Source: an uncultured Ignavibacteria bacterium
GTDB lineage: Bacteria; Zixibacteria; MSB-5A5; DSPP01; RBG-1
Direction: 5' to 3'
Assembly (NCBI GenBank): GCA_964399055.1
Contig: CAYNPJ010000001.1
Coordinates: forward strand, 582,935-646,934
DNA length: 64,000 nucleotides
The position numbers and the translations under genes were made by a program. The notes beneath the pieces were generated by a model. The model searched no databases, had not been told where the DNA came from, and worked only from the letters and a program-made list of their open reading frames with translations. Shown piece after piece: positions 5,890 to 32,292 of this stretch. How positions within the stretch are numbered: position 1 is the stretch's first letter; the number at the start of each line of letters is the position of its first letter.

Positions 5890-6446
5890 GTAGACCCAGC
5901 TTGCCCCAAGCTGGGACAGAATAAAATGGTCAGATTAAGAAGATATAATGTGGAAAATTTAGCTTATCTAATAACTACTTCTGCTTTTCTGAATAGACCT
6001 TCGCTTTTGACAAACCAGAGAGCAGAAACAGTAGCGGATTACATCTATCGTGCCCGGCCTGACTTGATTCAATACCTTTTGGCATTTGCCATAATGCCCA
6101 GTCACATGCATATACTTTTTGTTCCCCAACCCGGAGTTACTATCTCAGGGGTTCTTCACTATATTAAAAGAGGCAGTGCCAGAGTAATTCAGGCACAAGA
6201 AAAGACAACCGGCCGGTTGTGGACCAGGAGATTTCACGACCAGGGCATCAGGACTGAGGAGCAGTTGAGAGAGTCGATTGAGTACATTCACAATAATCCG
6301 GTTAAAGCGGGGATGGTAAAGGAGGCGGAGGAGTATTTATGGTCGTCGGCGAATTCGAGGTGGAAGACGGATGTGGATTTGTATTTGGTCCCACGTTGAG
6401 GGTTCGACTCAGGCTCACCCTAAAAGGCAACGTGGGTCTACGAGCT
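5890..6446 (+). mobile_element. RAYT/IS200-like element copy 1 (left hairpin, tnpA, right hairpin)
   Basis: Left end GTAGACCCAGCTTG-CCCC-CAAGCTGGG hairpin (5890-5915). Right hairpin CCCACGTTG...CAACGTGGG-TCTACGAGCT (6390-6446). The GTAGACCCA / TGGGTCTAC termini are inverted repeats. Confidence 0.65.
5926..6399 (+). CDS. tnpA: REP-associated tyrosine transposase (IS200/IS605-like HuH TnpA)
   Basis: 157 aa. HuH motif HMHILF, C-terminal catalytic Tyr region EYIHNNPVKAG, IS200-like size. Identical to the copy at 8458-8931. Confidence 0.75.
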   Translation: MVRLRRYNVENLAYLITTSAFLNRPSLLTNQRAETVADYIYRARPDLIQYLLAFAIMPSHMHILFVPQPGVTISGVLHYIKRGSARVIQAQEKTTGRLWTRRFHDQGIRTEEQLRESIEYIHNNPVKAGMVKEAEEYLWSSANSRWKTDVDLYLVPR

Positions 6447-7349
6447 AATCCGTATTCTTATGTGAGGAATAATCCTTTGAACTACACAGACCCCAGTGGG
6501 ATGGACCCGATAGGTCTTTTCAAAGGTAGTGGTTTTCCTAGAGGAGGAATTGGAAAACCCGGTATACGCAATTTTGCAGGGCCGGAAGGGGGCACAGAAG
6601 GGGGAGGAAAATCTGTACCTTTTGGGAAATTATTCCCGGTGGCCGCAAGCAGGGGTCCTGAGGCTGCTTTTAATTATCTCGTCGGGAAAGGGATGATAAT
6701 ACATGACATGGGACCGCTAATCCTAGGTCCTAATCTGGGACCATCACGGCACGACCCATTTGATCTTTGGATGAAGATGGCCAATCAAGCTGCGGTTATA
6801 AATGATGCTAATAGGCGACAGTTAATGATTGAAGGAAACCTTCATTATTTGATGCAAGATGCTATAGATTACGCTAATAATCATCCCGAAGCTACTGAAG
6901 CAGAGATACAAGATTGGGTCAAGCAAGCAGCTCGAGCTACTGGTATACCTGAGCAAGTTGCTCTATCGGTACTCTACACGGAAAACAGAATAGGTATAGA
7001 TGATATTAAAAAAGGTGAGGATGCTAATAAGGTCAATCTGATGCAGATAGAAGACGGTCCGGGAATGGCAGGAACAGGAGAATATTTCGGTTTAAATCTA
7101 GCAGACGAAAGCGCTGTTCCTTGGCGGACTAATTGGGGCGCCAATATAGTGGCGGGTATGGCTTATTACGCACACCTGTATTATGATTACGCAATTACCC
7201 GTTATGGTTTTGAGCCAGGCTCTAGGCAGGCTTATCAGTCTGCCTATTCTATGTACAATGGTGGCCCAAAAGCTTGGTATCGATTCTTATTTATGATGGA
7301 TAAACGCGACCAGAATTTTCAAAACGAGCTAAACTATTGGGGTTTTTAA
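6339..7349 (+). CDS. orphan RHS C-terminal toxin module (RHS core end plus lysozyme/SLT-like tip), 5' truncated at the transposon boundary
   Basis: Homology begins exactly at the element end (6444) with ANPYSYVRNNPLNYTDPSGM, the conserved end of the RHS repeat-associated core (DPxG autoproteolysis motif). The tip carries SLT/lytic-transglycosylase-like motifs (NLMQIEDGPG, YSMYNGGPKAW). No RHS/YD repeats upstream. Confidence 0.55.
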   Translation: MVVGEFEVEDGCGFVFGPTLRVRLRLTLKGNVGLRANPYSYVRNNPLNYTDPSGMDPIGLFKGSGFPRGGIGKPGIRNFAGPEGGTEGGGKSVPFGKLFPVAASRGPEAAFNYLVGKGMIIHDMGPLILGPNLGPSRHDPFDLWMKMANQAAVINDANRRQLMIEGNLHYLMQDAIDYANNHPEATEAEIQDWVKQAARATGIPEQVALSVLYTENRIGIDDIKKGEDANKVNLMQIEDGPGMAGTGEYFGLNLADESAVPWRTNWGANIVAGMAYYAHLYYDYAITRYGFEPGSRQAYQSAYSMYNGGPKAWYRFLFMMDKRDQNFQNELNYWGF

Positions 7350-7411
7350 TACGCTCACTACCATTTTTGCACTAAGTCACAAACCAAAGAGTAGAAAGGA
7401 GGATAAAGACG

Positions 7412-8140
7412 ATGAGAATCAAATACGTAATCACTTTGTTAACTTTAATCTCTATTTTAACTGGGCAGAGCAATTCGAATAAAGCAGCTAAACCGGAGAG
7501 GGGAGAATTATACACTATCATTGGTCAGCTCTATGGTTATAGAGAAAGCCCAATTATAAAACCGGGAGTAGTTATGTGCTATGATTCAATGGATTGGGAC
7601 ATAAGAGACACCATTAATGCCCCAGGTGATTGGAAGGGAGAGAAATATGAGGTGAGGGAATATAGGTGGAAGGATTCGAGTTTTGTCTTTGAACGCAGAT
7701 ATTACACGAATGAAACCGGCAAGAAGCAGATCCATCGAGAGGATTATGATTATTCAAGAACCAGAAATTTAGAACTACCAGAGGTATTTTTTCAAATTCC
7801 ACAGATGGCCTTCATTGCAGGGATGAGGACGACAAAAGCTTATGCAGAAGGGGACTTCAATTCTGATGGAAGAAAAGACTTAGTAATCGTAATGGGAGAT
7901 ACTACGAGAGCAAAATATCCGAAATTTATAGACTACTATTTAGAGATTTGGGAGCAGAAAAATGATGGTGGATTCTCCAGAAAATTCCGTTACGATTTTA
8001 GCGATATTGATGTTGGAAAAGTAACGATACAAGATGCCACAGGTGATGGGAGACCAGAGGTTATACTTTGGACATTTAGTGGTGGTGCCAGTGGTTGGAC
8101 TGAGTTTGTGGATATTTTTTCAAGAGTAAAGGATAAATAA
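7412..8140 (+). CDS. secreted FG-GAP-like protein, candidate immunity protein for the upstream RHS-CT
   Basis: Signal peptide MRIKYVITLLTLISILTG. FG-GAP-like motifs GDFNSDGRKDLVIV and DATGDGRPEVILW. Sits directly downstream of a periplasm-acting toxin tip. Confidence 0.4.
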   Translation: MRIKYVITLLTLISILTGQSNSNKAAKPERGELYTIIGQLYGYRESPIIKPGVVMCYDSMDWDIRDTINAPGDWKGEKYEVREYRWKDSSFVFERRYYTNETGKKQIHREDYDYSRTRNLELPEVFFQIPQMAFIAGMRTTKAYAEGDFNSDGRKDLVIVMGDTTRAKYPKFIDYYLEIWEQKNDGGFSRKFRYDFSDIDVGKVTIQDATGDGRPEVILWTFSGGASGWTEFVDIFSRVKDK

Positions 8141-8421
8141 GCAGTTTCCTTAAAAATGAGGAGGATACTATCCTAAGCACTGGAGTAGAGAAGTATCGCT
8201 TTTTTGCTTTCTGCGTTGGGATTCTTGTTTACATATCTTTTTTACCAGATTCAGGCCTTGCTCAGATACCCCAGATTCAGGAAAACCAAATTATAAATGA
8301 CCCAGCTATAATCCCTCAAGGGGAATTCATTCTGGATACCACCATTAAGATTCCTCAACTCTCCTTCCGTAACGCCGACCTCCGCGATATCTTCGACGCT
8401 TTAGCCAAAACCTACAAGCTT
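8138..8421 (+). pseudogene. 5' fragment of an STN/secretin-N-domain protein, paralog of 34625-35506, truncated by the RAYT element
   Basis: Translates to ...IPQLSFRNADLRDIFDALAKTYK, near-identical to IPQLSFRNADIRDIFDALAKTYN in the 34625 gene. No ATG. The frame runs in-frame into tnpA copy 2. Confidence 0.5.
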
Positions 8422-8978
8422 GTAGACCCAGCTTGCCCCAAGCTGGGACAGAATAAAATGGTCAGATTAAGAAGATATAATGTGGAAAATTTAGCTTATC
8501 TAATAACTACTTCTGCTTTTCTGAATAGACCTTCGCTTTTGACAAACCAGAGAGCAGAAACAGTAGCGGATTACATCTATCGTGCCCGGCCTGACTTGAT
8601 TCAATACCTTTTGGCATTTGCCATAATGCCCAGTCACATGCATATACTTTTTGTTCCCCAACCCGGAGTTACTATCTCAGGGGTTCTTCACTATATTAAA
8701 AGAGGCAGTGCCAGAGTAATTCAGGCACAAGAAAAGACAACCGGCCGGTTGTGGACCAGGAGATTTCACGACCAGGGCATCAGGACTGAGGAGCAGTTGA
8801 GAGAGTCGATTGAGTACATTCACAATAATCCGGTTAAAGCGGGGATGGTAAAGGAGGCGGAGGAGTATTTATGGTCGTCGGCGAATTCGAGGTGGAAGAC
8901 GGATGTGGATTTGTATTTGGTCCCACGTTGAGGGTTCGACTCAGGCTCACCCTAAAAGGCAACGTGGGTCTACGAGCT
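8422..8978 (+). mobile_element. RAYT/IS200-like element copy 2 (identical to copy 1)
   Basis: Identical left hairpin (8427-8447), tnpA, and right hairpin with the same 29-nt loop insertion; ends in GGGTCTACGAGCT. Confidence 0.65.
8458..8931 (+). CDS. tnpA: REP-associated tyrosine transposase (identical copy 2)
   Basis: Protein is 100% identical to the 5926-6399 product. Confidence 0.75.
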   Translation: MVRLRRYNVENLAYLITTSAFLNRPSLLTNQRAETVADYIYRARPDLIQYLLAFAIMPSHMHILFVPQPGVTISGVLHYIKRGSARVIQAQEKTTGRLWTRRFHDQGIRTEEQLRESIEYIHNNPVKAGMVKEAEEYLWSSANSRWKTDVDLYLVPR

Positions 8979-9149
8979 TACCGGAGTAGGAATGGGGTTA
9001 AGTGCGCCAACATATATAGATTGGATTAATGATAATATTATGCCAATAATTAATGAATATTGTCCAGCATGCGGAGTTTATCCCATGGGTCCTTAGGTCG
9101 TTATTGTTTGTGGATGTCAAGCAGTGAAAAGAGAATCTAAAGGAAAATC

Positions 9150-9494
9150 ATGATACTAGACCTAGCACAAATTGCAATAGGGTTATTTTTCCTGCTAGTT
9201 GTATTTGTTTATCTTAAGAGATATCATTCCTTTCCCCTCAGCCCTCTCTACGCTTTAGGTTGGGGCATATTCATATCCATTGAATTGGGAATATATCTCT
9301 ACTCAAAACGGGTCGACTTCACTAATAGACTATTTATCATTCTTATGTTAGGACTTTATCTATTAGCACTATTCAGCCTATTAAATCACCTTGGAGAGAG
9401 AGATGACCAAGAATGGAAGAGGTTTCTCCATAGCCCAAATTTTTGGGGGTTGACCCTCATCAACTTTGCCATAGCATTAGCATTCGTATTATAA
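9150..9494 (+). CDS. hypothetical small membrane protein
   Basis: 114 aa with three hydrophobic helices, in an AT-rich patch. No homology recognised. Confidence 0.3.
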   Translation: MILDLAQIAIGLFFLLVVFVYLKRYHSFPLSPLYALGWGIFISIELGIYLYSKRVDFTNRLFIILMLGLYLLALFSLLNHLGERDDQEWKRFLHSPNFWGLTLINFAIALAFVL

Positions 9495-9811
9495 TTTTTC
9501 TAAATTTACATAGAATGAATTGCACTTGCGCATACAACCATTAAGAGCAGAACAGTTAAGTGATGTGAACTAACTCCACTTCAAGTAACTTTAGCAAGAC
9601 ATACAAGACAGTATGAACAATCAACAAATAAATCCCACTGCAGTCGTAATCAAGCCCGTCGGATTAATGGTTATTCTTACTATCTGTACATCTCTAGTGA
9701 AGTTTATTCTTGAACCATATCTTGGAATGTACTCATATGGTTACACTTCGTTCGTCTTACAGAATTTGGTGGATAGTGCTGGTGTAGTGAACCCCATTTG
9801 TCAAGACACGT

Positions 9812-9984
9812 TCAAGCTGCTTTTTCTATGCGGTTTTGGGCCTCAAACTCCTCCGGACTTTTGTAACCCAAAGCCGAATGGGGGTAGTGGTGATTGTAAT
9901 CTTCTACCCACCTTTTTAGTTTAGTCTCCACCTCCTCTAAGCTTTTAAATTCATTGACCCAGACTAGTTCCTCCTTGATAGCTT
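9812..9984 (-). pseudogene. C-terminal fragment of an IS3/IS481-family (rve integrase-core) transposase
   Basis: ...WVEDYNHHYPHSALGYKSPEEFE matches the conserved DDE-transposase C-terminal motif (N..RPHS.LGY.TP.EF). The N-terminal part of the ORF is encoded by the REP hairpin, so it is truncated. Confidence 0.5.
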
Positions 9985-10011
9985 GTAGACCCAGGTTGCC
10001 CCCAACCTGGG
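9985..10011 (+). repeat. solo REP-like hairpin of the RAYT family
   Basis: GTAGACCCAGGTTG-CCCC-CAACCTGGG. Same architecture as the RAYT left ends, with a compensatory GC>GG / GC>CC change that preserves the stem. Confidence 0.55.
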
Positions 10012-10281
10012 CATAGTTTCGCACCTTGGCTCGATTTCGCTCACCATCGAATTATGAGGACAGGGTAGGTCTCCATTTTCTCTTTTTATACTTGCACCAA
10101 ATATGAAGACTGATGCACAAAGAGACGGCAGCAGTCTCTCCGCTTAAACCTAACAGCAGTTACGCCCTTTTTGTCATTTATTTATGCACTCCTAACTTAT
10201 AGCCAGATAGAAAGTTAGCAGGCCATTTCACCACCTTATCCGACGCATTGAGTAAACCCTCACTGGCACAGGGTTTGCTCG

Positions 10282-10695
10282 ATGGTCTATCAGAAGACAA
10301 AAGGAAAAACGATGAACTGCTACTTTTACGGAACCGCCAGAGAGAGCCAGTCAATCTTAGGACACAACAGCGTGGTGGCCTTTTCCATCCCGGAGCTGAA
10401 TCTAATCTTCAAGGCCCAGATTAAAGGGAATCAGGCTCAGGCCGAATATGCCAGCCTGATAGCTCTCTTAGAGTTCATCGAGCTTAATCCCCGACTTTTT
10501 GACAAGAAGAAGATTCAGATTTACGGGGACAGCCCCACGGTAGTTCATCAGGTCAATTTTCAGGAAGGCTGCTCCAAAGAATTGGAGCCCTACCGCAATT
10601 TAGCCCTGCAATATAAAAGGAGAATCTCCTACACCTTAGGCTGGGTCTCCAAAGACGAAAACCGGGCCTTTCGGCTTACCTCTCCGGCTTTCTGA
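10282..10695 (+). CDS. RNase H-like domain protein (possibly inactive)
   Basis: Pattern ...GNQAQAEYASLIALLEFI...IQIYGDSPTVVHQV...DENRAFRL matches the RNase HI/RVT_3 Glu/Asp/Asp cores, but the first catalytic Asp is absent (YFYGTA). Confidence 0.4.
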   Translation: MVYQKTKGKTMNCYFYGTARESQSILGHNSVVAFSIPELNLIFKAQIKGNQAQAEYASLIALLEFIELNPRLFDKKKIQIYGDSPTVVHQVNFQEGCSKELEPYRNLALQYKRRISYTLGWVSKDENRAFRLTSPAF

Positions 10696-10787
10696 TTGAC
10701 AAACGGAAAGCCTGACCTATCTTAGCATTTAATAATTCAAATATTCTGATTCTACGTTTGTTTTGCTAACCAATCTTAAGAAATTAC

Positions 10788-11834
10788 TTGGCTAAGAAAA
10801 ATGTTGAAAAGTTCCGGCAAGAGATAAGTAAGAAGAAATTTGCCCGAGTTTATCTCTTCTCCGGGCCGCAGGAGGATTTGAAAAGGGAGGCGCTGAAGAT
10901 TCTGACCGAGGCGCTTTTGCCTTCAGGCTCGAAATCTTTCAACTTGGATAAAAGAGAAGCAGGTCAATTCGCAGTCCCGGACTTGGGCAATTTGATTTCC
11001 ACTCTGCCCTGGGGAGCGCCTCAAAGAATTGTAGTTCTCTCCGGGGTTGACGAATTGCAATTAGAGCAGAAACACGAATTAGCTAAATTAGTTGAGAAAA
11101 TCCCCCAAACCACCTGCTTAATTTTAACCGCAGTAAAAATTCCTGAGTCGGAAATACTTTACAAAGCCATAGATAAAAACGGAGAAGTGATTGAGTTTGC
11201 CACGCTACGGGAGGAGAAGTTAGTCGAAAGAATAATAGAAAAAGTACAGACTTCGGGAAAAGTAATAGATACACAGGCCGCAGAAAGGCTGGCTTTGGCG
11301 ATTGGCTCAGATTTGTCCGGCTTGGAGCAGGAAGTTGAGAAGCTGGTTACGTTCATAGGCGAGAAAAAGAGTATTACTGGAGAAGAAGTGGAGCAGCTGA
11401 TTTCCGCCAGTCCGGAATACAAGGTCTATGAGTTAATCGAGCAGATTTCCAAGGGAGAAGTTCAAAAATCCGTTGAGATTGTAAGAGAGGTTCTGTTCAC
11501 TCAGAAATATGCCGGGATTGTCACCAATCAATTGTTGCAAGATTTTTTCTTTTTATGGAGGTTGTTCACCTATACCGGCTCCAGAAGCGATTTCAAGGGG
11601 CTGACCGCCCATCTGGGTCTGGAGAGGCAGGCATTCAGAGTCTCCAAATATTTGAATTGTTCTCGAAATTACAATCAGGCTAAGGTTGAACAGTCGTTAA
11701 AGAAAATAACTGAAGCTGACCGGGCTCTACGTTACAACCCGCTCTCGCCAGAGATTCTGGTGGAGCAATTAGTCGTGGAGTTGTGCCAGATTGCATCAGG
11801 TAAGGCGACAGTCTTTACAACTGCCAAGATTTAG
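10788..11834 (+). CDS. holA: DNA polymerase III delta subunit
   Basis: TTG start. Length and N-terminal pattern KKFARVYLFSGPQEDLKREALKIL are typical of HolA. Confidence 0.65.
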   Translation: MAKKNVEKFRQEISKKKFARVYLFSGPQEDLKREALKILTEALLPSGSKSFNLDKREAGQFAVPDLGNLISTLPWGAPQRIVVLSGVDELQLEQKHELAKLVEKIPQTTCLILTAVKIPESEILYKAIDKNGEVIEFATLREEKLVERIIEKVQTSGKVIDTQAAERLALAIGSDLSGLEQEVEKLVTFIGEKKSITGEEVEQLISASPEYKVYELIEQISKGEVQKSVEIVREVLFTQKYAGIVTNQLLQDFFFLWRLFTYTGSRSDFKGLTAHLGLERQAFRVSKYLNCSRNYNQAKVEQSLKKITEADRALRYNPLSPEILVEQLVVELCQIASGKATVFTTAKI

Positions 11835-11934
11835 CCTGTTACACTTATACATTTCCAATCTCAGATATCCTGCCGAGCAAAGTCGAAATTAGAGCTTGAC
11901 TTGACCCTTTAGGAGAATAGTTTAATCTCCGGAG

Positions 11935-12669
11935 ATGGTTGTAAGGTCGTACGCTTTGGTTTTAGTTTTGGCCGCGTGCTTATTGCCAGACTGTGGCCGG
12001 AGAAAGGCGGACGTGAAAGAACAGAGTCCGGAAGAAATCTGGAGGGCCCGAAGAGCCAAGATGGTCAAGGAGCAGATCGAAGACCGGGGGATAAAGGACA
12101 GTTTAGTCCTGGCGGCCATGCGCAAAGTCCCCCGGCATAAATTCATTCCCGAAGAATATGTTGAATTAGCCTACGTGGACGGACCTCTTCCAATTGGCAG
12201 CGAACAGACCATCTCCCAGCCTTACATCGTGGCGGTGATGACCGAACTCTTAAAACTCAAAAAAGGGGATAAAGTTCTGGAAATCGGGACTGGCTCTGGC
12301 TATCAATGTGCCGTGCTGTGTGAAATTGCAGATTCTGTCTACACCATTGAAATAGTCGAACCCTTGGGTTTGAAGGCAAATCAAACTTTAAAGCGCTTAG
12401 GTTACAAAAACTTTGAACTTAAGATTGGTGACGGCTACCAAGGCTGGCCGGAAAAAGCTCCCTTTGAGGGCATAATCGTCACCGCTGCGCCCGATCATAT
12501 TCCGGAGCCGCTCTACGAACAGTTAAAGATGGGAGGGAGAATGGTCATTCCAGTGGGGGAAGCAAACCAGGAGTTGTTGGTAATTACCAAGACCGAAAGA
12601 GGAATGGTTACCGAATCGGTTTTGCCGGTTAGATTCGTGCGGATGACCGGGGAAGCGGAGGAAAAGTAA
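11935..12669 (+). CDS. pcm: protein-L-isoaspartate O-methyltransferase
   Basis: Motifs GSEQTISQPYIVAVMTELL and VLEIGTGSGYQ (SAM-binding). Confidence 0.85.
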   Translation: MVVRSYALVLVLAACLLPDCGRRKADVKEQSPEEIWRARRAKMVKEQIEDRGIKDSLVLAAMRKVPRHKFIPEEYVELAYVDGPLPIGSEQTISQPYIVAVMTELLKLKKGDKVLEIGTGSGYQCAVLCEIADSVYTIEIVEPLGLKANQTLKRLGYKNFELKIGDGYQGWPEKAPFEGIIVTAAPDHIPEPLYEQLKMGGRMVIPVGEANQELLVITKTERGMVTESVLPVRFVRMTGEAEEK

Positions 12670-12766
12670 TTTCTGAAGTTTTGCAGGCTGTTGTACACAT
12701 CACTTCAACTTCTGAGATTTTTGAACCCTTTTCAATTTTTGCTCGTAAATAACAATCAGGAGGTGT

Positions 12767-13003
12767 ATGATGGCTAAAAGAATCTATCGCTCGAGAAAAG
12801 AAAAAGTGATAGCCGGAGTTTGCGGAGGTTTGGGCGACTATCTGGGAATTGATCCGGTTCTTATCAGAATAGTCTGGGTGGTGACGGTAATCTGTGCTGG
12901 CACCGGAATCTTGGCTTACATCTTAGCCTGGATTTTTATCCCCAAGGAGCCGGTCTTTCAACACAGATCAGAACCAGAGGCCCGGGCAGCGGCCAACGTC
13001 TAA
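12767..13003 (+). CDS. PspC-domain membrane protein
   Basis: IYRSRKEKVIAGVCGGLGDYLGIDPVLIRIVWVV is the canonical PspC domain, followed by a TM helix. Confidence 0.7.
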   Translation: MMAKRIYRSRKEKVIAGVCGGLGDYLGIDPVLIRIVWVVTVICAGTGILAYILAWIFIPKEPVFQHRSEPEARAAANV

Positions 13004-13024
13004 TCTTTCAAGAAAGAGGAAATT

Positions 13025-15128: not shown

Positions 15129-15267
15129 AAAGCGAGGTTATTGGCCCCTCCCTGCCCTCACCTCTAGGGGAGGGATTTGAACCATTCTCCTTCACTTAAT
15201 ATAATCAGCTTGACTTAGAAGCAATTCTCCAGCTAACTTGGGTTTTATTTTGAAACTGGAGGATTGA

Positions 15268-21006: not shown

Positions 21007-21009
21007 GGG

Positions 21010-24045: not shown

Positions 24046-24275
24046 CAAATGAAATCTCTTTACTGTCTTCTTTCTTGAAGTAACGGTTCGAGTTGCGTCC
24101 GGGCAATTCTGCCAAACATAGGACTATTCTGCCCGTAAAAACTCAGAGAAAAAGGTTGACTTTTGAAAATTAAAGAGAAATATTAAATATTTATTATTCT
24201 GAATGCCTGTCAGGATTGATTTCCTTGCCAAGCAAGATAGAAGCATAAAATAGCATAAGAGGAGAGAAAAAATTT

Positions 24276-25337
24276 ATGCCTGTAAACGCCAAGTTGGCGA
24301 CCAAGCCCAAGCAGGAGACCAGCCTGCCCTTTACCTCGGTAGAGGAGGCCAGAAAGCTCTATTACCTCCTGCTTAAGTGCCGGCTGGTGGACGAAGCCAA
24401 CCGCAAGCACTTCCGCACCGGGAAGTTCTTAGGGACCTATTATTCCGCAGTTGGGCAGGAAGCCACTACCGTAGTTCCGGCCTTTCTACTTAAACCTGAA
24501 GACGTGATTGCCCCCCAGCACCGAGAGATTGGCTGCAGTATCGGGCGGCAGGTCCCCTTGAAGCTGATGTTAGCCCACAACATGGGGCGCAGAGCTGGAT
24601 TTGACAAAGGAAAGAATCACCCTTGCCACTATGGCGGCAGTCAGTGGAATATTATTAACCCGGCTTCCACGATGGCGGCCCAGACTGTAGTGGGAAGCGG
24701 CTGCGCCCTGGCTTTCAAATTACAGAAGAGAGATAACGTTGTCATCGCCTTCACCGGCGAAGGCGGAACTTCCCAGGCCGGCTGGCATGAGGCCTGCAAC
24801 TTGGCCGGAGTTCACAAGCTCCCCATGATTTTCATCTGTCAGAATAACCTCTGGGCAGAATCGGTGCCAGCCAGCCTTCAGGCCGGGATAACGGATTTTT
24901 CCGACCGGGCCAAGGCCTACGGCTTTCCCGGAATCACTATTGACGGCAATGACGTAATTGCGGTTTACACCACGGTCAAGGAGGCCATAGCCCGGGCCAG
25001 AAAAGGAGAAGGTCCCACCTTAATCGAGATGAAGACTTACCGCTGGTACGGCCACTCGGAAATCGACCCGGCTGATTACCGGACCAATGATGAGGTAGAG
25101 GAGTGGAAGAAGAAAGACCCTTTGCCCCGCTTTGAAAAATTTCTGCTGGAGCGGGGAGTCATTACTCAGGCTGAAGTCGAAGAGCTGACCGCTCAGATTA
25201 AAAGAGAGCATGAAGAGGCTTCGGATTGGGCGGCCAACTCCCCCTTGCCGGCCCCGGAAGAAGCCATCGAAGACGTTTACGTACCCGGCACCAGAGTAGA
25301 GGAGATGCACCGTGAGCAGAACCGTAACTTTCATTGA
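24276..25337 (+). CDS. 2-oxoacid dehydrogenase E1 component alpha subunit (TPP-dependent)
   Basis: TPP-binding region GEGGTSQAGWHEACNLAG...IFICQNN. Operon position upstream of E1beta-E2-E3. Confidence 0.8.
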   Translation: MPVNAKLATKPKQETSLPFTSVEEARKLYYLLLKCRLVDEANRKHFRTGKFLGTYYSAVGQEATTVVPAFLLKPEDVIAPQHREIGCSIGRQVPLKLMLAHNMGRRAGFDKGKNHPCHYGGSQWNIINPASTMAAQTVVGSGCALAFKLQKRDNVVIAFTGEGGTSQAGWHEACNLAGVHKLPMIFICQNNLWAESVPASLQAGITDFSDRAKAYGFPGITIDGNDVIAVYTTVKEAIARARKGEGPTLIEMKTYRWYGHSEIDPADYRTNDEVEEWKKKDPLPRFEKFLLERGVITQAEVEELTAQIKREHEEASDWAANSPLPAPEEAIEDVYVPGTRVEEMHREQNRNFH

Positions 25338-26298
25338 TGCCATAACCGAGGCGATGAGAGAGGAGATGGAGCGGGATGAAACCGTCTATCTCATCGGCGA
25401 GGACATAGGAATTTATGGCGGAGTCTTCAAAGCCACCAAAGGCTTACAGAAACAATTCGGCGAATACAGAGTAATAGACTCGCCCTTATCCGAAAACGTA
25501 ATAGTCGGCTCCTCCATCGGCGCGGCGATACAGGGCATGAGGCCGGTGCCGGAGATTCAGTTCTCCGATTTTATCACCCCGGCTATGGACCAGATTGTCC
25601 AGCAAGCGGCCAAGCTGCGCTACCGCTCCGGCGGGGATTACAAGATTCCCATGACCATCCGGGTCTGCTGCGGCGGAGAAGTGGGGGGCGGCCTGTATCA
25701 CTCCCAGATTAACGAAGCCTGGTTTGTCCACACGCCCGGATTAGTGGTGGTGGCTCCTTCCACCCCTTATGATGCCAAGGGCCTGCTCAAAGCCTCTATC
25801 AGAGACGACAACCCGGTAATCTTCTTCGAGCACAAAAAACTCTACCGCTCCATTAAGGCTGAAATTCCAGACGGAGACTACACCATCCCCTTGGGCTCTG
25901 CTGATATCAAGCGACCGGGCAAGCATGTCACCATCATTACCTACATGCTAATGCTGCACAAGTCCCTTAAGGCGGCCGAAGAGTTAGCCCAAGAGGGGAT
26001 TGAATGCGAAGTGATTGACCTGCGGACAATTTACCCGATTGACAAACAGACCATTTTGGAATCGGTCAAAAAGACCGGCAAAGTTGTAATAGTGGTAGAA
26101 GCTCCCAAGACCGGCTCAGTGGCCGGAGAGCTTTCTGCCATTATCTCCGAGGAGGTCTTTGAATATCTGGATGCCCCCATCATCAGGGTTTGCGGACCGG
26201 ACACACCGCCGATTCCCTTCTCCCCACCCATGGAGCACTTTTGGCTTCCCAGCCCGGAGAGGATCATCAAGGCGGTCAAGCACGTGGTCAATTATTAG
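25312..26298 (+). CDS. 2-oxoacid dehydrogenase E1 component beta subunit
   Basis: Transketolase-like pyrimidine-binding and C-terminal domains, with typical E1beta conservation (IGEDIG.YGGVFK). Confidence 0.85.
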   Translation: MSRTVTFIDAITEAMREEMERDETVYLIGEDIGIYGGVFKATKGLQKQFGEYRVIDSPLSENVIVGSSIGAAIQGMRPVPEIQFSDFITPAMDQIVQQAAKLRYRSGGDYKIPMTIRVCCGGEVGGGLYHSQINEAWFVHTPGLVVVAPSTPYDAKGLLKASIRDDNPVIFFEHKKLYRSIKAEIPDGDYTIPLGSADIKRPGKHVTIITYMLMLHKSLKAAEELAQEGIECEVIDLRTIYPIDKQTILESVKKTGKVVIVVEAPKTGSVAGELSAIISEEVFEYLDAPIIRVCGPDTPPIPFSPPMEHFWLPSPERIIKAVKHVVNY

Positions 26299-26306
26299 GA
26301 GGACCG

Positions 26307-27599
26307 ATGGCAATAGAGATAGTGATACCCCAGTTAGGCGAGTCGGTAGTAGAGGGGACCATTTCCAAATGGCTCAAGAAGGAAGGGGATAAAATCGACA
26401 AGGATGAGCCGCTGGTCGAAATTGCCACGGATAAAATCAACATCGAGATTCCTTCACCCAAGGCCGGCACTTTAGGAAAAATCATTGTTAAAGAAGGCAC
26501 AGTGGTTCCGGTCGGCGAGTTGATAGGCTTATTAGCCGAGCCGGGAGAATCTTTAGATTCGCTCAAGGCTCCGGCTGGAGTCAAAACCGAGAAGGGAGTA
26601 GAAAAGCCTTCTTCCGCACCAACCACTTCTGGAGCTGCCTCAGAAACAGAAGCAGTTGAGACAGACCACAAACGTCTCTCTCCGGCGGTCAGACGGCTGG
26701 TGAAGGAACATAACTTAGATGTCAACAGGATAAGAGGGACCGGCTCCGAAGGCCGCATCACCCGAGACGATGTCTTAGCTTACATTGAGCAGTCGAAATC
26801 CGCTCCGGCACCTGCCAGGGCCGAGACCGCTCCCAAACCAGCTCCCAAGACAGTTCCCACATATGCCCCTTCGGCTCCAGCAGGGCCACGAGAAGAGATT
26901 ATCCCCATGACCCAGGTGCGAAGAATCATTGCCGAGCACATGACAAAAAGCGCCTACACGGCCCCGCATGTCACCACCTGGGATGAATTCGACTGTACCA
27001 AATTGGTAGAAATACGGGAGAAGCTAAAAATCATTGCTCAGGAAAAATACAACATCAAGCTGACTTATATGCCTTTGATTGCCAAGGCCTCGGTGATGGC
27101 ATTGAAGGAATATCCCTTGGTAAACGCTTCCCTTGAGGGTGAGAATATCCGCCTGAAAAAATTCTACAACATCGGCATGGCCGTGGGCCGTGACTCCGGT
27201 CTTATCGTGGTAGTGGTCAAGGACTGCGACAAGAAGTCGCTCTTGCAGATTGCTTCGGAGATGACCCAATTGGGTGAGAAAGCCCGGACCGATAAGCTGA
27301 CCTTAGATGAGATTCAGGGAAGCACTTTTACCCTGACCAATGCAGGGATGTACGGCGCACTGGCCTCTACTCCGATAATTAATTACCCCGAGGTAGCCAT
27401 CTTAGGACTGCATATGATTCAGAAGCGTCCGGCGGTGGTTGACAACCAGATTGTGATCCGGGAGATGATGACCGCCTGTTTATCTTTTGACCACCGTCTG
27501 ATTGACGGCCACTATGCAGTCCAATTTTTACACCGCATTAAATACTTCATAGAGCATCCGGATGAGTGGCTCTTGAGCGCGGTCTTGGATGCAGTTTAG
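26307..27599 (+). CDS. dihydrolipoamide acyltransferase E2 component
   Basis: RBS AGGAGG precedes the ATG at 26307. Lipoyl domain IATDKINIEI, E3-binding LSPAVRRLVKEHNLD, catalytic DHRLIDG. Confidence 0.85.
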   Translation: MAIEIVIPQLGESVVEGTISKWLKKEGDKIDKDEPLVEIATDKINIEIPSPKAGTLGKIIVKEGTVVPVGELIGLLAEPGESLDSLKAPAGVKTEKGVEKPSSAPTTSGAASETEAVETDHKRLSPAVRRLVKEHNLDVNRIRGTGSEGRITRDDVLAYIEQSKSAPAPARAETAPKPAPKTVPTYAPSAPAGPREEIIPMTQVRRIIAEHMTKSAYTAPHVTTWDEFDCTKLVEIREKLKIIAQEKYNIKLTYMPLIAKASVMALKEYPLVNASLEGENIRLKKFYNIGMAVGRDSGLIVVVVKDCDKKSLLQIASEMTQLGEKARTDKLTLDEIQGSTFTLTNAGMYGALASTPIINYPEVAILGLHMIQKRPAVVDNQIVIREMMTACLSFDHRLIDGHYAVQFLHRIKYFIEHPDEWLLSAVLDAV

Positions 27600-27673
27600 G
27601 TAGAAAATATGCCTTGCTTTCAGAAGAGTGGTAGGGGTCTGCCACTCTTTTTAATTCCCTAGAAAGGAAGAAT

Positions 27674-29089
27674 ATGTCTGCTGAGATTAGAACCGAAGCT
27701 TTAGTCATCGGCGCCGGGCCCGGCGGATACGTAGCCGCCATCAGGCTGGGGCAGTTAAAAAAGAAAACCGTCATTGTGGAGAGAGACAAAGTCGGCGGCC
27801 TGTGCCTGAATTACGGCTGTATCCCCTCCAAAGCGCTTTTATACGCGGCTGAGTTAATCAAGAATTTTAAGAAAGCGGAAAAATACGGAATCACTGCTGA
27901 AAATATAAAAATCGATATCAATGTTCTGCGCAACAAGAAGCAGCAGGTGGTAAATCAATTAGTCAACGGAGTGGGTATTCTGCTGAAAGGAAATGGGGTT
28001 CAAACTATGATGGGGGAGGCGAAGTTTACAGACCAGAAAGTGGTGGAAGTGAAATCGGCAACCGGAGAAGTTACCCGGATAATAGCCGACAGCCTCATCA
28101 TCTCAACTGGCTCGGCCCCTTTTTCATTTCCATTTCTGCCCTTAGACGGCAAAAAAGTGATTACCAGCAAAGAGGCCCTGGAAGTTCCCTTTATCCCCAA
28201 AGAGATGGGAGTTGTAGGCGGCGGCTATGTGGGGATGGAGATGGCTTCGGTCTATCATGCTTTAGGCGCGCATGTCACTGTGATTGAGATGTTGGACATG
28301 GTCTGCGCCAATGCGGATAAGCAGATTGCCCAGTTAGTCAATATGAAATTCAAAAGAGATGGAATTGTTCTTTTGACCTCTACCAAGGTGACTGGTTCGA
28401 AGACGTTGTCCGACGGTAAGATAGAATTGACTGTCACCGGTCCGGAAGGAGAAAAGAAATTGGCTTTTGATTTGGTGATGGTGGCAGTGGGGCATAAGCC
28501 GGTTACCAATGGGCTGGGTCTGGAAAAGACCGGAGTCAGATTAGACCAGAAAGGATTCATCCAGGTAGACTCGCAGATGAAGACCAATGTGCCGGGAATT
28601 TATGCGGTTGGCGATTGTGTTGGGCATCAACTCTTAGCCCACAAAGCTTTCAAGGAAGGCGAAGTGGCCGCAGAAGTGATTTCCGGCAACAATGAGGCGG
28701 AGATGAATTACCGGTTGGTCCCCTGGGCGGTCTTTACCCATCCGGAGATTGCCGGAGTCGGTCTCACTGAAGAGGAGGCCAAACAGAACGGCTATCAGGT
28801 TAAAATCGGCACCTTTCCTTTCAGAGCCATAGGCAGGGCCATCGGGATGGACGAAAGCGATGGCTTAATCAAAGTTGTAGCCAACGCTACTAACGATGAA
28901 CTTTTAGGAGTGCATATGTTCGGAGCCAGCGCCGGAGAGCTGATTGCCGAGGCAGCGGTGGCTTTGGGATTTGAAGCCACTGCGACTGAATGGGGAGAAA
29001 TCATTCACGTGCATCCCACCCTATCGGAGGCGGTGATGGAGGCGGCTTTAGGCGTCAACAAACGTTCGGTTCACATGATAAACAAATGA
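27674..29089 (+). CDS. lpdA: dihydrolipoyl dehydrogenase (E3)
   Basis: FAD motif GAGPGGYVAAIR, redox disulfide GGLCLNYGCIPSKAL, C-terminal HVHPTLSE. Confidence 0.9.
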   Translation: MSAEIRTEALVIGAGPGGYVAAIRLGQLKKKTVIVERDKVGGLCLNYGCIPSKALLYAAELIKNFKKAEKYGITAENIKIDINVLRNKKQQVVNQLVNGVGILLKGNGVQTMMGEAKFTDQKVVEVKSATGEVTRIIADSLIISTGSAPFSFPFLPLDGKKVITSKEALEVPFIPKEMGVVGGGYVGMEMASVYHALGAHVTVIEMLDMVCANADKQIAQLVNMKFKRDGIVLLTSTKVTGSKTLSDGKIELTVTGPEGEKKLAFDLVMVAVGHKPVTNGLGLEKTGVRLDQKGFIQVDSQMKTNVPGIYAVGDCVGHQLLAHKAFKEGEVAAEVISGNNEAEMNYRLVPWAVFTHPEIAGVGLTEEEAKQNGYQVKIGTFPFRAIGRAIGMDESDGLIKVVANATNDELLGVHMFGASAGELIAEAAVALGFEATATEWGEIIHVHPTLSEAVMEAALGVNKRSVHMINK

Positions 29090-29790
29090 AAAAGGAATGC
29101 TGGGCCTTTAATTTAGGCCGGGTTGATTACGCCGAGGCTCTGAATTTGCAGAGAGAGTTAGTTTCTCTGCGCCAGAGAGAGTCATTGCCAGAATTGCTGC
29201 TGCTGGTCGAACACGACCATGTCATCACCTTCGGCAGGGCAGGGAGAGAAACAAATTTGCTTTCTGACGAAGAGGCTCTAAAAAGAGCCAGTGTAGAGGT
29301 TCATTACATAGAGCGGGGAGGGGATGTAACCTATCATGGGCCCGGCCAGTTGGTGGCTTATCCGATTTTTGACTTAAATTACTGGAAGAAGGACTTACAT
29401 TTGTTCCTGCGCAATTTGGAAGATGTGATAATTCAGACTTTATCTGAGTACGACTTAAAGGCCGAAAGAATAAAGGGCTTGACCGGCGTGTGGGTGGAAG
29501 GCGAGAAAGTAGCTGCCATCGGGGTGGCAGTTAAGAAGTGGATTACTTTGCACGGCTTTGCTCTAAACGTCAACACCGACTTGAGCTATTTTACATTCAT
29601 TCATCCGTGCGGGATTACGGACAGGCCGGTGACCTCGATGCAGGAGTTGTTAGGAGAAAAAGTTGATTTTGAAGAAGTAATCAAGATTGTGCAGGAAAAG
29701 TTTGCCGAAGTATTCGGACTGAAGATAGAAATTGGCGCCCCAAATTTTCTTCATAAGATATTAGTTGCTCAGCCCACTCTTTCTACCTAA
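29086..29790 (+). CDS. lipB: lipoyl(octanoyl) transferase
   Basis: ATGA overlap with the lpdA stop. LipB-like core RGGDVTYHGPGQLVAYPI. Confidence 0.8.
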   Translation: MKKECWAFNLGRVDYAEALNLQRELVSLRQRESLPELLLLVEHDHVITFGRAGRETNLLSDEEALKRASVEVHYIERGGDVTYHGPGQLVAYPIFDLNYWKKDLHLFLRNLEDVIIQTLSEYDLKAERIKGLTGVWVEGEKVAAIGVAVKKWITLHGFALNVNTDLSYFTFIHPCGITDRPVTSMQELLGEKVDFEEVIKIVQEKFAEVFGLKIEIGAPNFLHKILVAQPTLST

Positions 29791-29873
29791 ATCGGAAAAT
29801 ACCTCTTCTAAAAGAAAGAGGAACTAAATCCCCTCTCCTATGAGGGGAGGGTTAGGGAGGGGTTAGTTATTTT

Positions 29874-29977
29874 CGTCATTGCGAGGAGAGCCGATATATC
29901 GGCTCGACGTGGCAATCCCCCAGAATAAACGCTCGGTATCCATTCACTGGAATCACCACGCCCCGAGTGGCCGGGGC
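29874..29977 (+). repeat. MITE-like element with terminal inverted repeats CGTCATTGCGAG / CTCGCGATGAC
   Basis: 11/12-nt TIR in a 104-nt non-coding unit. The same left TIR recurs at 35604. Confidence 0.4.
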
Positions 29978-30113
29978 TCGCGATGACTGCTGACATTATT
30001 GTTTCATCTCTCGATGTAAAAAGGTTTAGTTCGGTTAACGTCTGTGGATTGCTTGACTTGCCGCCAGAAAGCTGATAGATTGCCTCTTGTGATTTTCTTC
30101 ACCAGAAGCAGTT

Positions 30114-30503
30114 ATGTCCAAGAAAATTATTTCCACCGATAGAGCGCCCCAGGCAGTAGGTCCTTATTCTCAGGCGGTAGTGTTGGAGAATCTGAATCTG
30201 GTCTTTGTCTCCGGGCAGATTGCCATTCCACCGGGGTCAAAAGAGTTAATCCGGGGAGGAATCGTCGAAGAGACTAAGCAGGTTTTGGAGAATCTTAAGA
30301 ATATCTTGGAAGCGGCGGGGAGTTCCCTCGACAAAGTGGTCAAGACCACGGTCTTCTTGCGCAGTATGGATGACTTCGGCCTGATGAATGAAACTTACAA
30401 TCAGTATTTAAAGACTAATTTTCCGGCGCGCTCCACGGTCCAGGTGGCCGCGCTCCCCAAGGGAGCCAGAGTAGAAATAGAAGCTATAGCATATCTAGAT
30501 TAA
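30114..30503 (+). CDS. ridA: RidA/YjgF-family reactive intermediate deaminase
   Basis: 129 aa with typical RidA conservation (APQAVGPYSQAV, VFVSGQI, PARS.VQV). Confidence 0.85.
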   Translation: MSKKIISTDRAPQAVGPYSQAVVLENLNLVFVSGQIAIPPGSKELIRGGIVEETKQVLENLKNILEAAGSSLDKVVKTTVFLRSMDDFGLMNETYNQYLKTNFPARSTVQVAALPKGARVEIEAIAYLD

Positions 30504-30515
30504 AAAGGAGAAGAG

Positions 30516-31724
30516 ATGATTGATTTCAGCTGGAGCGATGAACATATAGCAGTCAGAGAATTGGTGCGGGAATTCTGTCAGAAGGAAGTTGCCCCCAATT
30601 TAGTCGAAAGAGACCGGACCCAGAAATTCGACCCGGATATACTGAAAAAGATGGCCGAGAAAGACATCTTAGGCATTTGCATTCCGGCCAAATACGGCGG
30701 AGCAGGTTTTGACTACATCAGCCTAGGGGTCTGCTGCGAAGAGTTGGAATACTGTGATACTTCACTCAGAGTAATATTGTCGGTGCATATCGGCTTAAAC
30801 AGTCTGACTTTACTCTCCTGGGGAACTGAGGAACAGAAACAGAAATATTTAGTCCCTAATGCCAAGGGAGAAAAAATCGGGACCTTCGGATTAACCGAGC
30901 CAAATGCCGGCTCAGACGTGGTCGGTATCCTGAGCACTGCAGATGATAAGGGAGACCATTATCTCTTGAACGGCGAGAAGATGTGGATTTCCTTAGCTGA
31001 GGTGGCTGATAATTTCTTGATTTTTGCCTGGACCGACCGGGAGAAGATGAAAAAAAGAGACCACTCCGGCATTACCGCTTTTATTGTCGAACGCCACTGG
31101 AAAGGGATAACCACCGGAGCTATTCACGGCAAATTAGGTATTCGGGCCGGTAATACCGGTTGGATTTCGATGCAGGACGTGAAAGTCCCCAAAGAAAATC
31201 TTCTCGGAAAAATCGGAGAAGGTTTTCACATAGCTATGTTCTGTTTGGACCAGGGTAGATACACAGTGGCTGCCGGCGCAACCGGTCTGGTCAAAGCCTG
31301 CTTGGACGCCTCGATTAACTATTCCAAGACCAGAAAAACTTTCGGACATCTGATTGCCGAACATCAGTTAGTCAAAGAGATGATTGCCGGCATGGAGTCA
31401 GATTATCATGCGGCTCAGTTGCTATGGTTAAAAGCTGGCTGGCTAAAGAATATGGGTATTCGCAACACCAAAGAGACTTCCTTAGCCAAGTGGTATGCCA
31501 CAGTTGCTTCAGAGCGGGCCGCGTCAGATGCGGTCCAGGTCCATGGCGCTTATGGCTACTCAGATGAATATCCGGTGGAGAGATTCTATCGCAACTGCAA
31601 AGGGGCGGTTATCTACGAAGGCTCGCGGGAGATTCACAAGCTGATGCAGGCGGATTATGTGCTGGGCTACCGTCAGGATAAGCCGACCAGGTGTACTCTG
31701 CCGAAGTACGGGGAGATAAAGTAA
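30516..31724 (+). CDS. acyl-CoA dehydrogenase
   Basis: ACAD N-terminal, middle and C-terminal domains ([22 protein letters not shown]). Confidence 0.85.
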
Positions 31725-31760
31725 TTCTATGAATAGTAGATTAATCTAAATGTAAAAATC

Positions 31761-32292
31761 GTAGACCCAGCTTGTCCCCAAGCTGGGATAAGATAAGATG
31801 GTGAGATTACGACGATATAATGTCGAAAACTTGGCATACTTTGTCACAACTTCTTCGTTTTTGAGCCAGCCCGTTCTCCTGACAAATAAAAGAGCCGACG
31901 CAATCGCGAACCATATTTATGCGGCTAAAGAGGAATTGATTGAGTATCTTTTGGCATTTGCCATTATGCCTAATCATTTGCATTTGTTATTTGTACCGAT
32001 GCCGAACGTAACTATTTCTCAAGTTTTGCATTATATTAAGAAGGGGAGTTCCAGGGTTATACACGAACAGGAAAAAGGCAGCGGGAGGTTGTTGACCAGG
32101 CGATTTCATGACAGAGGGATTAGGAGCCAGGAGCAACTGAGGAAGGCCATTGAGTATATTCATTTTAATCCGGTGAAGGCGGGATTGGTTAAGGAAGCGG
32201 AGGAGTATTTATGGTCGTCAGCGAATTCGAGGTGGAAGACGGATGCGGATTTGTATTTAGTCCCACGTTGAGGCAACGTGGGTCTACGAGCT
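31761..32292 (+). mobile_element. RAYT/IS200-like element copy 3 (diverged)
   Basis: Same GTAGACCCAGCTTG...CAAGCTGGG left hairpin and CCCACGTTG-AG-GCAACGTGGGTCTACGAGCT right hairpin, but without the 29-nt loop insertion. Confidence 0.65.
31798..32271 (+). CDS. tnpA: REP-associated tyrosine transposase (copy 3, about 70% identical to copies 1 and 2)
   Basis: HuH motif HLHLLF and catalytic region EYIHFNPVKAG. Same length as the other copies. Confidence 0.7.
   Translation: MVRLRRYNVENLAYFVTTSSFLSQPVLLTNKRADAIANHIYAAKEELIEYLLAFAIMPNHLHLLFVPMPNVTISQVLHYIKKGSSRVIHEQEKGSGRLLTRRFHDRGIRSQEQLRKAIEYIHFNPVKAGLVKEAEEYLWSSANSRWKTDADLYLVPR

Follow-up and report, generated by a model that had tools for sequence, protein, structure and literature searches.

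The window analyzed here, a stretch of 64,000 nucleotides of contig CAYNPJ010000001.1 from an uncultured Ignavibacteria bacterium (Zixibacteria, RBG-1, in the GTDB lineage), very probably harbours a REPtron, i.e. a gene encoding a REP-associated tyrosine transposase (RAYT) enclosed by two inverted, GTAG-tagged repetitive extragenic palindromes (REPs) of a dispersed family. This is a known kind of repeat system; what is unusual here is the apparent copying of the unit as a whole and the presence of a mini-repeat in one of the hairpin loops.

The RAYT gene and its inverted hairpin ends

The open reading frame (ORF) of the unit, 157 amino acids long, was recognized by Pfam as Y1_Tnp. It passed the NCBIfam RAYT model REP_Tyr_transpos (NF047646; 103.8 and 106.4 bits for a cutoff of 80) and failed the IS200 equivalog (NF033573; 31 bits for a cutoff of 55). 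Its best PDB relative, E. coli TnpA-REP (4ER8), matched over the full length, and both the HMH motif (residues 60-62) and the catalytic tyrosine were aligned with this protein (YIHNNPVKAG versus YIYINPVKHG). Homologues were few, with 24 matches in a word-indexed protein search. An exact match to the RAYT protein was recorded only for a Logan contig of 1 kb, whereas no record matched the copy 3 protein or a neighbouring acyl-CoA dehydrogenase. These results support the assignment of the ORF to the RAYTs, the family that an earlier note on this DNA had proposed from the letters alone.

The hairpin-head pattern GTAGACCCAGSTTG, with at most one mismatch, was found seven times in the window for 0.02 expected by shuffling, and the complete hairpin pattern GTAGACCCANNTTG..CAANNTGGG was also found seven times, for 0 expected. 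Six of the seven hairpins bracket three copies of the ORF and the seventh is a solo at 9985-10011; these are exactly the places at which the earlier note had located hairpins, including the inverted termini of all three copies. Each unit consists of a left hairpin GTAGACCCAGCTTG..CAAGCTGGG, the ORF and an inverted right hairpin CCCACGTTG..CAACGTGGGTCTAC, and the units span 5890-6441 (copy 1), 8422-8973 (copy 2) and 31761-32287 (copy 3). On the top strand the left hairpin reads GTAG-A-CCCAGCTTG-(T)CCC-CAAGCTGGG. The right hairpin repeats this structure on the bottom strand, except that the dinucleotide at the centre of each arm is exchanged (CCCACGTTG/CAACGTGGG). The termini are thus inverted repeats of 28 nt that differ by a single, compensated exchange of a dinucleotide, and each terminus is itself palindromic. 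The ORF starts 8-10 nt past the left hairpin and its last codons (...VPR-stop) lie inside the right one. Folding as DNA (an RNA fold of both ends had been suggested beforehand) gave a 9-bp stem of about -10 kcal/mol for every hairpin (z about -4). The left hairpin was indeed shared by all copies, but not with the CCCC loop first ascribed to it, the loop of copy 3 being TCCC and that of the other two copies CCC. AGCTT precedes three of the four left hairpins, solo included, as had been reported, and GAGCT follows all three right hairpins.

Components of the REPtron copies and the solo REP. Positions are those of the window, followed by the strand.
5885..6446, +, REPtron copy 1: AGCTT, left REP, RAYT gene, inverted right REP, GAGCT (from identity to 8417-8978)
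5890..5915, +, left REP of copy 1: GTAG tag, A, 9-bp stem CCCAGCTTG/CAAGCTGGG, loop CCC, "GC type"
5926..6399, +, RAYT gene of copy 1: TnpA-REP-like Y1 HUH nuclease, 157 aa, with HMH as the HUH motif and the tyrosine in EYIHNNPVKAG
6390..6441, -, right REP of copy 1: "CG type", head outward, expanded loop
6400..6425, +, 26-nt REP-loop insertion of copy 1, a member of the (N)GGT-TCGACTNN(N)GCTC-ACC(N')TAAA mini-repeat, its placement being ambiguous by 1-2 nt
8417..8978, +, REPtron copy 2: left REP 8422-8447, ORF 8458-8931, right REP 8922-8973, loop insert 8932-8957
31761..32292, +, REPtron copy 3: left REP 31761-31787, ORF 31798-32271, right REP 32262-32287 (plain AGG loop), GAGCT
9980..10011, +, solo REP: AGCTT followed by GTAGACCCAGGTTG-CCCC-CAACCTGGG, GG/CC subtype, abutting a cut integrase fragment

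Dispersal of the REP family and relatives of the gene

To look for the hairpin elsewhere, one genome per species (596 Gb) was scanned with a gapped 19-base REP pattern, which yielded at least 106 loci. By our own estimate, about 130 chance matches are expected for this pattern in 596 Gb, and the scattered single matches with long loops (Actinomycetota, Vibrio and others) are therefore regarded as noise or unrelated conserved sequence. Among the matches listed, to which this and the next paragraph refer, those with short loops were concentrated in a few genomes with many loci each: the Zixibacteria RBG-1 (at least 12 loci), MAG C20 (at least 13), RBG_16_43_9, MAG038 and CSMAG_2715, three metagenome-assembled genomes (MAGs) of Ignavibacteria, and one MAG labelled Terriglobales (at least 13 loci). 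Several Planctomycetota carry a distinct GG/CC variant with a CGAG loop, and some REPs of RBG-1 and of other genomes have expanded loops of differing content. No RAYT gene was detected by tblastn and hidden Markov models in the 8-kb loci around the listed REPs (at least 106), indicating that the hairpin is a dispersed repeat and not only a gene end. REPs were found in both orientations, and eight head-out doublets were present in RBG-1, L112 and L079, with the GC type on one side and the CG type on the other, 11-23 nt apart. Since this is also the arrangement of the unit ends, the window units look, from their sequence, like a head-out doublet with the gene as cargo. The REP was not found in viral contigs. 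The hairpin is thus dispersed in related genomes and, as described below, flanks RAYT homologues; the earlier note would have taken it for a coincidental palindrome had it been absent elsewhere and unconserved in relatives.

The stems of these REPs covary. The variable central dinucleotides were complementary in 82 of 102 distinct short-loop REPs and comprised eight Watson-Crick types, GG/CC being the commonest subtype. With a looser pattern giving 87 distinct 28-nt REPs, 93.8% of cells were paired and double changes occurred at four of the five unconstrained pairs; compensatory cells numbered 90 versus 32 ± 4 after shuffling, a value reached by none of 500 shuffles, and slid controls collapsed. 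The solo hairpin, which reads CCCAGGTTG/CAACCTGGG with one base pair flipped relative to the left REP, had been put forward as direct evidence of selection on the stem through a compensatory mutation. Selection on the stem is borne out by the family-wide covariation, but the solo is a member of the common GG/CC subfamily rather than a fresh mutant. GTAG-tagged REPs have been characterized by an unpaired 5' GTAG, stems of 6-13 bp and loops of 2-4 nt, and subfamilies with complementary stem changes, head-out dimers and a REP overlapping the 3' end of the transposase gene have all been described (PMC3733652).

GTAG-tagged palindromes flank the gene in the three window copies and in L112, L236, L238, L108, L111, L113 and L115. 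Homologues with 68-80% identity (L112, L236, L238, L239) retain the compact REP-ORF-REP unit, with the left GTAG REP just upstream and the end of the ORF (...PR-stop) within CCCACGTTGA-GGR-CAACGTGGGTCTAC. The genes beside them, judged by name or by reading of the translation, are presumably CorC-like, NadE-like, NYN-like and RpoN-like, and these contexts are unrelated. Homologues with 49-57% identity (L108, L111, L113, L114 and L115; RAYT at about 4001-4477) occupy a conserved position, on four different contigs between a ComM/Mg-chelatase-like gene and an O-methyltransferase gene. On both sides they are bordered by arrays resembling bacterial interspersed mosaic elements (BIMEs), in which the window REP alternates with a second type, GTA(T/G)YCCC(A/G)CCTTG. 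Judged from this layout, the sister clade looks like a domesticated, sedentary RAYT branch of the same family. Domesticated RAYTs typically, though not by definition, have one copy per REP family, vertical inheritance and a conserved position, whereas the window contains three copies, two of them identical. Taken together, the unrelated contexts at 68-80% identity and the synteny of the sister clade make the window clade look like a mobile or frequently relocated branch. The genomes in which the REP and the nearest homologues occur also suggest that the window comes from a lineage related to Zixibacteria.

In a side comparison, window positions 55553-60357 aligned with L098 (DATKKH010000105.1, labelled Terriglobales) at 65-71% nucleotide identity over about 3.4 kb, in three aligned pieces. 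L098 is also rich in copies of the window REP; this could mean a wrong label or a REP/RAYT system common to several phyla.

It seems very improbable that the hairpins are regulatory elements of the host, either terminators or mRNA stabilisers, which flank the gene by chance without being acted upon by the RAYT. For REPs in general, most of which lie between genes, functions in termination and in the stability of mRNA have been suggested (PMC3733652), but the same hairpin stands beside RAYT homologues across clades at 49-80% identity, and the unpaired GTAG is the determinant recognised by TnpA-REP (PMC8266576). Moreover, REPs occur in both orientations and as head-out doublets, and a host function, though conceivable, would leave the association with RAYTs unexplained.

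An autonomous insertion sequence (IS) of the IS200 group (IS200/IS605), moving by single-strand peel-and-paste, would account for three copies within 26 kb, two of them identical with different flanks, for close relatives in non-syntenic contexts and for a short unit with a single ORF; the AGCTT found 5' of three of the four left ends could then be its target sequence. We nevertheless consider this origin improbable. The protein fails the IS200 equivalog and passes the RAYT model, and the window ends are inverted, with tags on opposite strands, whereas in IS200/IS605 the hairpins of both ends belong to the same strand and terminal inverted repeats are absent (PMC6006769, PMC8266576). Hairpins devoid of the gene occur as singlets and doublets at about 100 loci among the matches listed. 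Finally, in RBG-1 singlets AAGCTC or AAGTTT precedes GTAG and, since these singlets carry an equivalent flank, AGCTY belongs to the REP consensus and is not a duplicated target.

Apparent copying of the unit and truncated genes at its borders

Copies 1 and 2 displayed 100% identity over exactly 562 bp (5885-6446 and 8417-8978, comprising AGCTT, the unit and GAGCT), and their flanks outside this block are unrelated, which suggests that the gene and its REPs were copied whole. Both junctions of copy 2 were reproduced base for base in an independent Logan contig (L001). Copy 3 encodes a protein with 76% amino-acid identity to that of copies 1 and 2, and its nucleotide identity with them is about 74% in the middle of the unit, rising to near-identity at both ends. 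Codons 1-120 comprised 38 identical, 47 synonymous and 35 non-synonymous ones, versus 27, 8 and 3 for codons 121-158 (the 3' 114 nt). As L112 is not conserved at the nucleotide level in this region, the 3' end of copy 3 points to an exchange between paralogues and not to a cis-acting constraint.

Three genes are cut at REP borders within 4 kb.

Truncated genes at the REP and REPtron ends.
6444..7349, +, 5'-truncated C-terminal tip (ANPYSYVRNNPLNYTDPSGMDP...), presumably of Rhs/YD type, starting from the right end of copy 1
8180..8421, +, 3'-truncated pilQ/secretin-N-like fragment, ending at the left end of copy 2
9812..9984 (listed also to 10024), -, C-terminal fragment of a presumed rve-type integrase/transposase, cut at the solo REP (from its translation)

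The first of them we take, by motif, to be an Rhs/YD-type tip; Pfam gave no match for it or for its C-terminal domain. The pilQ/secretin-N-like fragment is cut after ...ALAKTYKL where an intact paralogue (34625-35506, 293 aa), located 26 kb away, goes on with ...ALAKTYNLNLWIDEK; the fragment has no in-frame ATG, GTG or TTG start, and the sequence to the right of copy 2 is unrelated. The third fragment is assumed, also by motif (...YNHHYPHSALGYKSPEEF...), to derive from an rve-type (IS3/IS481-like) transposase. From these three REP-bounded truncations, deletion or recombination seems to have had its breakpoints at REPs and REPtrons. For the empty site of copy 1, the comparison rests on a dGTPase orthologue in L182 which is a distant relative (67% nucleotide identity), and copy 1 is possibly misassembled.

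We also noticed an ORF which starts at an ATG in the 3' end of the RAYT gene, in another frame, and reads out through the right REP (6339-7349). In copy 1 it continues in frame into the orphan Rhs/YD-type tip (...NPLNYTDPSGMDP...). A similar outward ORF is present in copy 2, and in the relative L236 one starts at the equivalent position. It is conceivable that a displaced toxin tip obtains its start codon from the REPtron, but the arrangement may also be coincidental.

Instead of a transposition-like event, copies 1 and 2 could reflect homologous or REP-mediated recombination, gene conversion of older copies, or a repeat-induced assembly artefact. Between 5.9 and 10 kb, each of the three REP or REPtron ends abuts a truncated gene, with no simple insertion site, the homogenised 3' 114 nt of copy 3 (27/8/3 versus 38/47/35 codons) indicate that exchange between copies does occur, and the source is probably a MAG. 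We regard this as unlikely, though to be reckoned with, because the identity ends exactly at the outer REP borders on both sides and both junctions of copy 2 recur in the independent Logan assembly; in addition, a full-length conversion including the 26-nt insert would still require two pre-existing units. The copying as a block of a unit bounded by two head-out REPs, as proposed for doublets known as REPINs, is rather likely in our opinion.

Several points weigh against this picture. Neither copy 1 nor copy 2 lies in a clean insertion site, which weakens the case for block copying, and a near-identical RAYT duplicate on the same replicon is found for only 0.8-6.3% of RAYTs, depending on the group (PMC5581495), so that block copying would be atypical; for both reasons this part of the reading is held less firmly than the REPtron itself. 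The left side of copy 3 lacks AGCTT. The window contains a single solo REP and no doublets beyond the REPtrons, the high copy number of the REP being documented in relatives rather than in the source genome. Lastly, the loop insert of 26 nt might impair recognition, given that positions in the loop are important in two group 3 systems (PMC8266576), and yet it is the unit with this insert that was duplicated.

Studied TnpA-REP proteins bind the folded REP and its GTAG on single-stranded DNA, cut at CT (or CA) 5' or 3' of the hairpin and can rejoin strands, the GTAG playing a role like that of the guide sequence of IS608 (PMC8266576). By analogy with these enzymes we infer that the RAYT acts on the window REPs. 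It would bind the folded hairpin and the 5' GTAG on a single-stranded intermediate, cut at a nearby dinucleotide, for which the CT within the AGCT just outside GTAG is a candidate at both ends, and the strands would then be rejoined. Such catalysis would spread REP singlets and head-out doublets. With the gene inside a head-out doublet, the unit of 552-562 bp would have been copied as a block at least once, generating copies 1 and 2; a later exchange between paralogues may have homogenised the 3' end of copy 3, and REP or REPtron ends may have acted as breakpoints of rearrangement. The 26-nt loop insert would be an unrelated, widespread mini-repeat with a preference for hairpin loops, possibly moved by an enzyme of a similar kind, which entered before the duplication of copies 1 and 2.

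The nested mini-repeat and comparison with known systems

The right-REP loop of copies 1 and 2 carries GGGTTCGACTCAGGCTCACCCTAAAA, a 26-nt insertion (6400-6425 and 8932-8957) which is absent from copy 3; the insertion had been noticed earlier, with a length of 29 nt. It folds its own 5-bp stem, stacked on the REP stem. As both identical copies carry it, it probably entered the REP loop before they were duplicated. The consensus (A)NGGT-TCGACTNNGCTC-ACCN'(T)AAA comprises a variable stem of 4-5 bp, a conserved 12-nt loop and a TAAA tail. Two motifs of the window, at 54318 and 10027, had been said to resemble the insert. Both are related to it, but the first is not free-standing, since it lies inside the palindrome CCTCCCCT..AGGGGAGG, and the second is diverged.

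Mini-repeats of the window and the palindrome family that hosts one of them.
54308..54349, +, mini-repeat TGGTTCGACTTCGCTCACCATAAA (54317-54341; TGGT/ACCA) in the loop of the palindrome CCTCCCCT..AGGGGAGG
10027..10051, +, diverged mini-repeat TGGCTCGATTTCGCTCACCATCGAA with two of the 16 core nucleotides mismatched, at a distance of 15 nt from the solo REP
48433..48453, +, related hairpin TGCC-TCGACTTCGCTC-GGCA, beside the 3' end of tRNA-Asn
29799-29864, 35702-35767, 53967-53989, 63246-63268 and 63370-63435, copies of CCTCYCCT-NNN-AGGRGAGG, the mini-repeat host being at 54308

The same architecture with other stems was present in the Zixibacteria loci L017, L041 and L107. A metagenome scan with GGTTCGACTN{2,3}GCTCACCNTAAA, a pattern of 20 specified bases for which at most a handful of chance matches is estimated, led to the recovery of at least 120 contigs or loci (L116-L235) with unrelated flanks and a G+C content of 32-68%. 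In 103 of the 112 distinct copies listed, the nucleotide 5' of GGT is complementary to the one 3' of ACC (T·A 91, C·G 11, G·C 1). When only the loop (TCGACTNNGCTC) was searched for, 128 of 150 distinct copies were closed by at least 3 bp, with more than 20 different stems. The paired flanking base and the variety of stems around a fixed loop indicate a hairpin whose loop is conserved and whose stem is free to vary, with TAAA following it.

Of 118 listed cases, 22 had the mini-repeat enclosed by a perfect stem no shorter than 6 bp, for 3.2 expected, 10 of the 22 coming from one repeated family. Four unrelated hairpin families have both filled and empty members: the window REP (copies 1 and 2 filled, copy 3 empty), the L179 repeat beside a RAYT-like gene (loop CTC|CGC versus CTC-[24 nt]-CGT), CCCGCC-AAA-GGCGGG (empty in L182, at least 10 filled) and the window CCTCCCCT...AGGGGAGG (five empty with 3-nt loops, one filled). 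No target duplication was evident in the filled/empty pairs, the insertion being of 24-26 nt. Mini-repeats are also nested in the NN position of their own copies, in both orientations, and tandem arrays were seen. In L152 an inverted doublet disrupts a RAYT pseudogene with the same REP ends (2014-2712, -), and a 50-nt AT-rich palindrome is also inserted there between the YIHY and NPVK codons. The RAYT-like gene of L179 (4700-5450, -; about 32% identity) is flanked by direct 60-nt repeats ending in a GCAGCC...GGCTGC hairpin, with the mini-repeat only in the loop of the upstream copy. A RAYT-like gene lay within 200 nt of the mini-repeat in 3 of the 120 motif-selected loci listed, versus none in about 700 kb of REP-selected loci.

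The orientation of the mini-repeat showed no bias relative to neighbouring genes (upstream 29 versus 30, downstream 25 versus 33), which argues for an element acting at the DNA level and against a terminator or leader role. Between paired mini-repeats (L154, L159, L160) no coding partner was found, the intervening genes being ordinary ones, e.g. MoxR, TPR, glyoxalase and MltG-like genes. The mini-repeat was not found in viral contigs; Rfam returned only tRNA-Asn at gathering thresholds in the window and only spurious miRNA matches at E-value thresholds in motif-rich loci, and a literature search by mini-repeat sequence strings retrieved no relevant paper. Three candidate identities were rejected: a GTAG/CGTC-tagged REP, since no such tag is present and the conserved part is the loop; a miniature inverted-repeat transposable element, since no target duplication or coding partner between paired copies was evident; and a fragment of a tRNA 3' end (GGTTCGA..CACCA), since T-stem and acceptor pairing are lacking and ARAGORN finds only the genuine tRNA-Asn.

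The 26-nt loop might also be a long-loop REP variant, as in E. coli or Bradyrhizobium REPs, or resemble the mini-repeat by chance, and not be an independent element. Some GTAG families do have long loops with partial self-complementarity (PMC3733652), and expanded loops of differing content exist in some REPs of RBG-1 and others. We hold this to be most unlikely in view of the metagenome copies with the same 20 specified bases and unrelated flanks, the covariation of the flanking pair (three types) and the closing stems around a conserved loop. Furthermore, the motif occupies the loops of at least four unrelated hairpin families with empty members, and no loop insertion was found in the REPtron relatives with 68-80% identity (L112, L236, L238, L239).

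The mini-repeat is thus apparently an undescribed, hairpin-loop-seeking repeat. Judging from the filled and empty pairs, its apparent targets are the single-stranded loops of REPs, of terminator-like palindromes and of its own copies, which it would enter without duplicating the target. It is spread over many uncultured lineages and enriched near the genes of RAYT-like HUH enzymes, which may be responsible for its movement. The window REPtron clade, for its part, may be a link between IS200-like elements and domesticated RAYTs. That both hold jointly, the mini-repeat being an undescribed class of minimal mobile DNA and the REPtron clade a RAYT still transposing with its REPs, is a tentative and rather doubtful proposal.

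Other repeats of the window were observed in passing. The family hosting the mini-repeat at CCTCCCCT...AGGGGAGG consists of CCTCYCCT-NNN-AGGRGAGG followed by GNTAGGGAGGGGTT, scattered intergenically. Partial copies of tRNA-Asn (pieces 89% and 96% identical; 44581-44634 and 46443-46487) lie 4 and 2 kb from the intact gene (48456-48528, -); they are a possible trace of integrated elements, and degenerate mini-repeats cluster beside the tRNA 3' end. Most direct-repeat families of the window belong to long genes at 46700-48000, 52400-53600 and 60600-62300 with repeats of about 159 nt (...GNVYVTG... and ...DYATIKYSP... units) and FG-GAP/VCBS-like repeats, which are unrelated to the REPtrons.

The basic classification is unaffected by these additions, the core finding being an ordinary REPtron in an under-studied phylum; specialist interest lies in a REPtron apparently copied whole and in a widespread, apparently undescribed mini-repeat that seems to seek loops. 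To our knowledge, RAYTs and REPs have been studied almost entirely in Proteobacteria, where the gene occurs as one sedentary copy, and there is no proven mechanism for the spread of REPs. The putative block copy of 552 bp (REP, gene and REP), together with gene-less doublets in relatives, provides a natural test case for whether the enzyme moves REP doublets. Because the REP core is common to several MAG lineages and its 2-bp window covaries freely, the system would be convenient for the study of recognition specificity. If truly targeted to hairpin loops, the mini-repeat would be among the smallest mobile units known and a source of loop expansion in REPs and terminators.

Compared with known systems, the unit resembles the E. 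coli REPtron (TnpA-REP, 4ER8; REP/BIME) by its Y1 HUH protein, which shares the size (about 160 aa) and the HUH and tyrosine motifs, by the inverted GTAG palindromes which flank the gene and are dispersed (for the window REP, in related genomes), and by subtypes with compensated stem changes. E. coli REPs, however, are longer, with bulged stems and large loops, whereas those of the window have short perfect 9-bp stems; and in E. coli the gene is present once and has no known mobility, whereas the window unit is present in three copies (two identical) and its ORF ends inside the right REP. The REPs also resemble those of the group 3 REPtrons of Stenotrophomonas maltophilia (Sm) and Marinomonas (Mb) (PMC8266576) and to the REPINs of P. 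fluorescens (PMC3116915), with which they share short perfect palindromes, loops of 3-4 nt after GTAG, inverted doublets as the presumed mobile unit and a CT close to the tag. These are systems of Proteobacteria, in contrast to the Zixibacteria/FCB-like system of the window, in which the RAYT gene itself behaves as doublet cargo. The IS200 group (IS200; TnpA of IS608) has a related Y1 HUH enzyme, hairpin ends, no evident target duplication and multiple identical copies; the window system differs from it in that its protein fails the IS200 model, its ends are inverted and its hairpins proliferate without the gene. For the mini-repeat, the nearest precedent is the insertion of REPs within other palindromes in T. 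roseum and A. variabilis (PMC3733652). There too a small repeat lies centrally in an unrelated palindrome of which empty versions exist, but the mini-repeat has no GTAG/CGTC tag and enters many hairpins, including a GTAG REP and its own copies.

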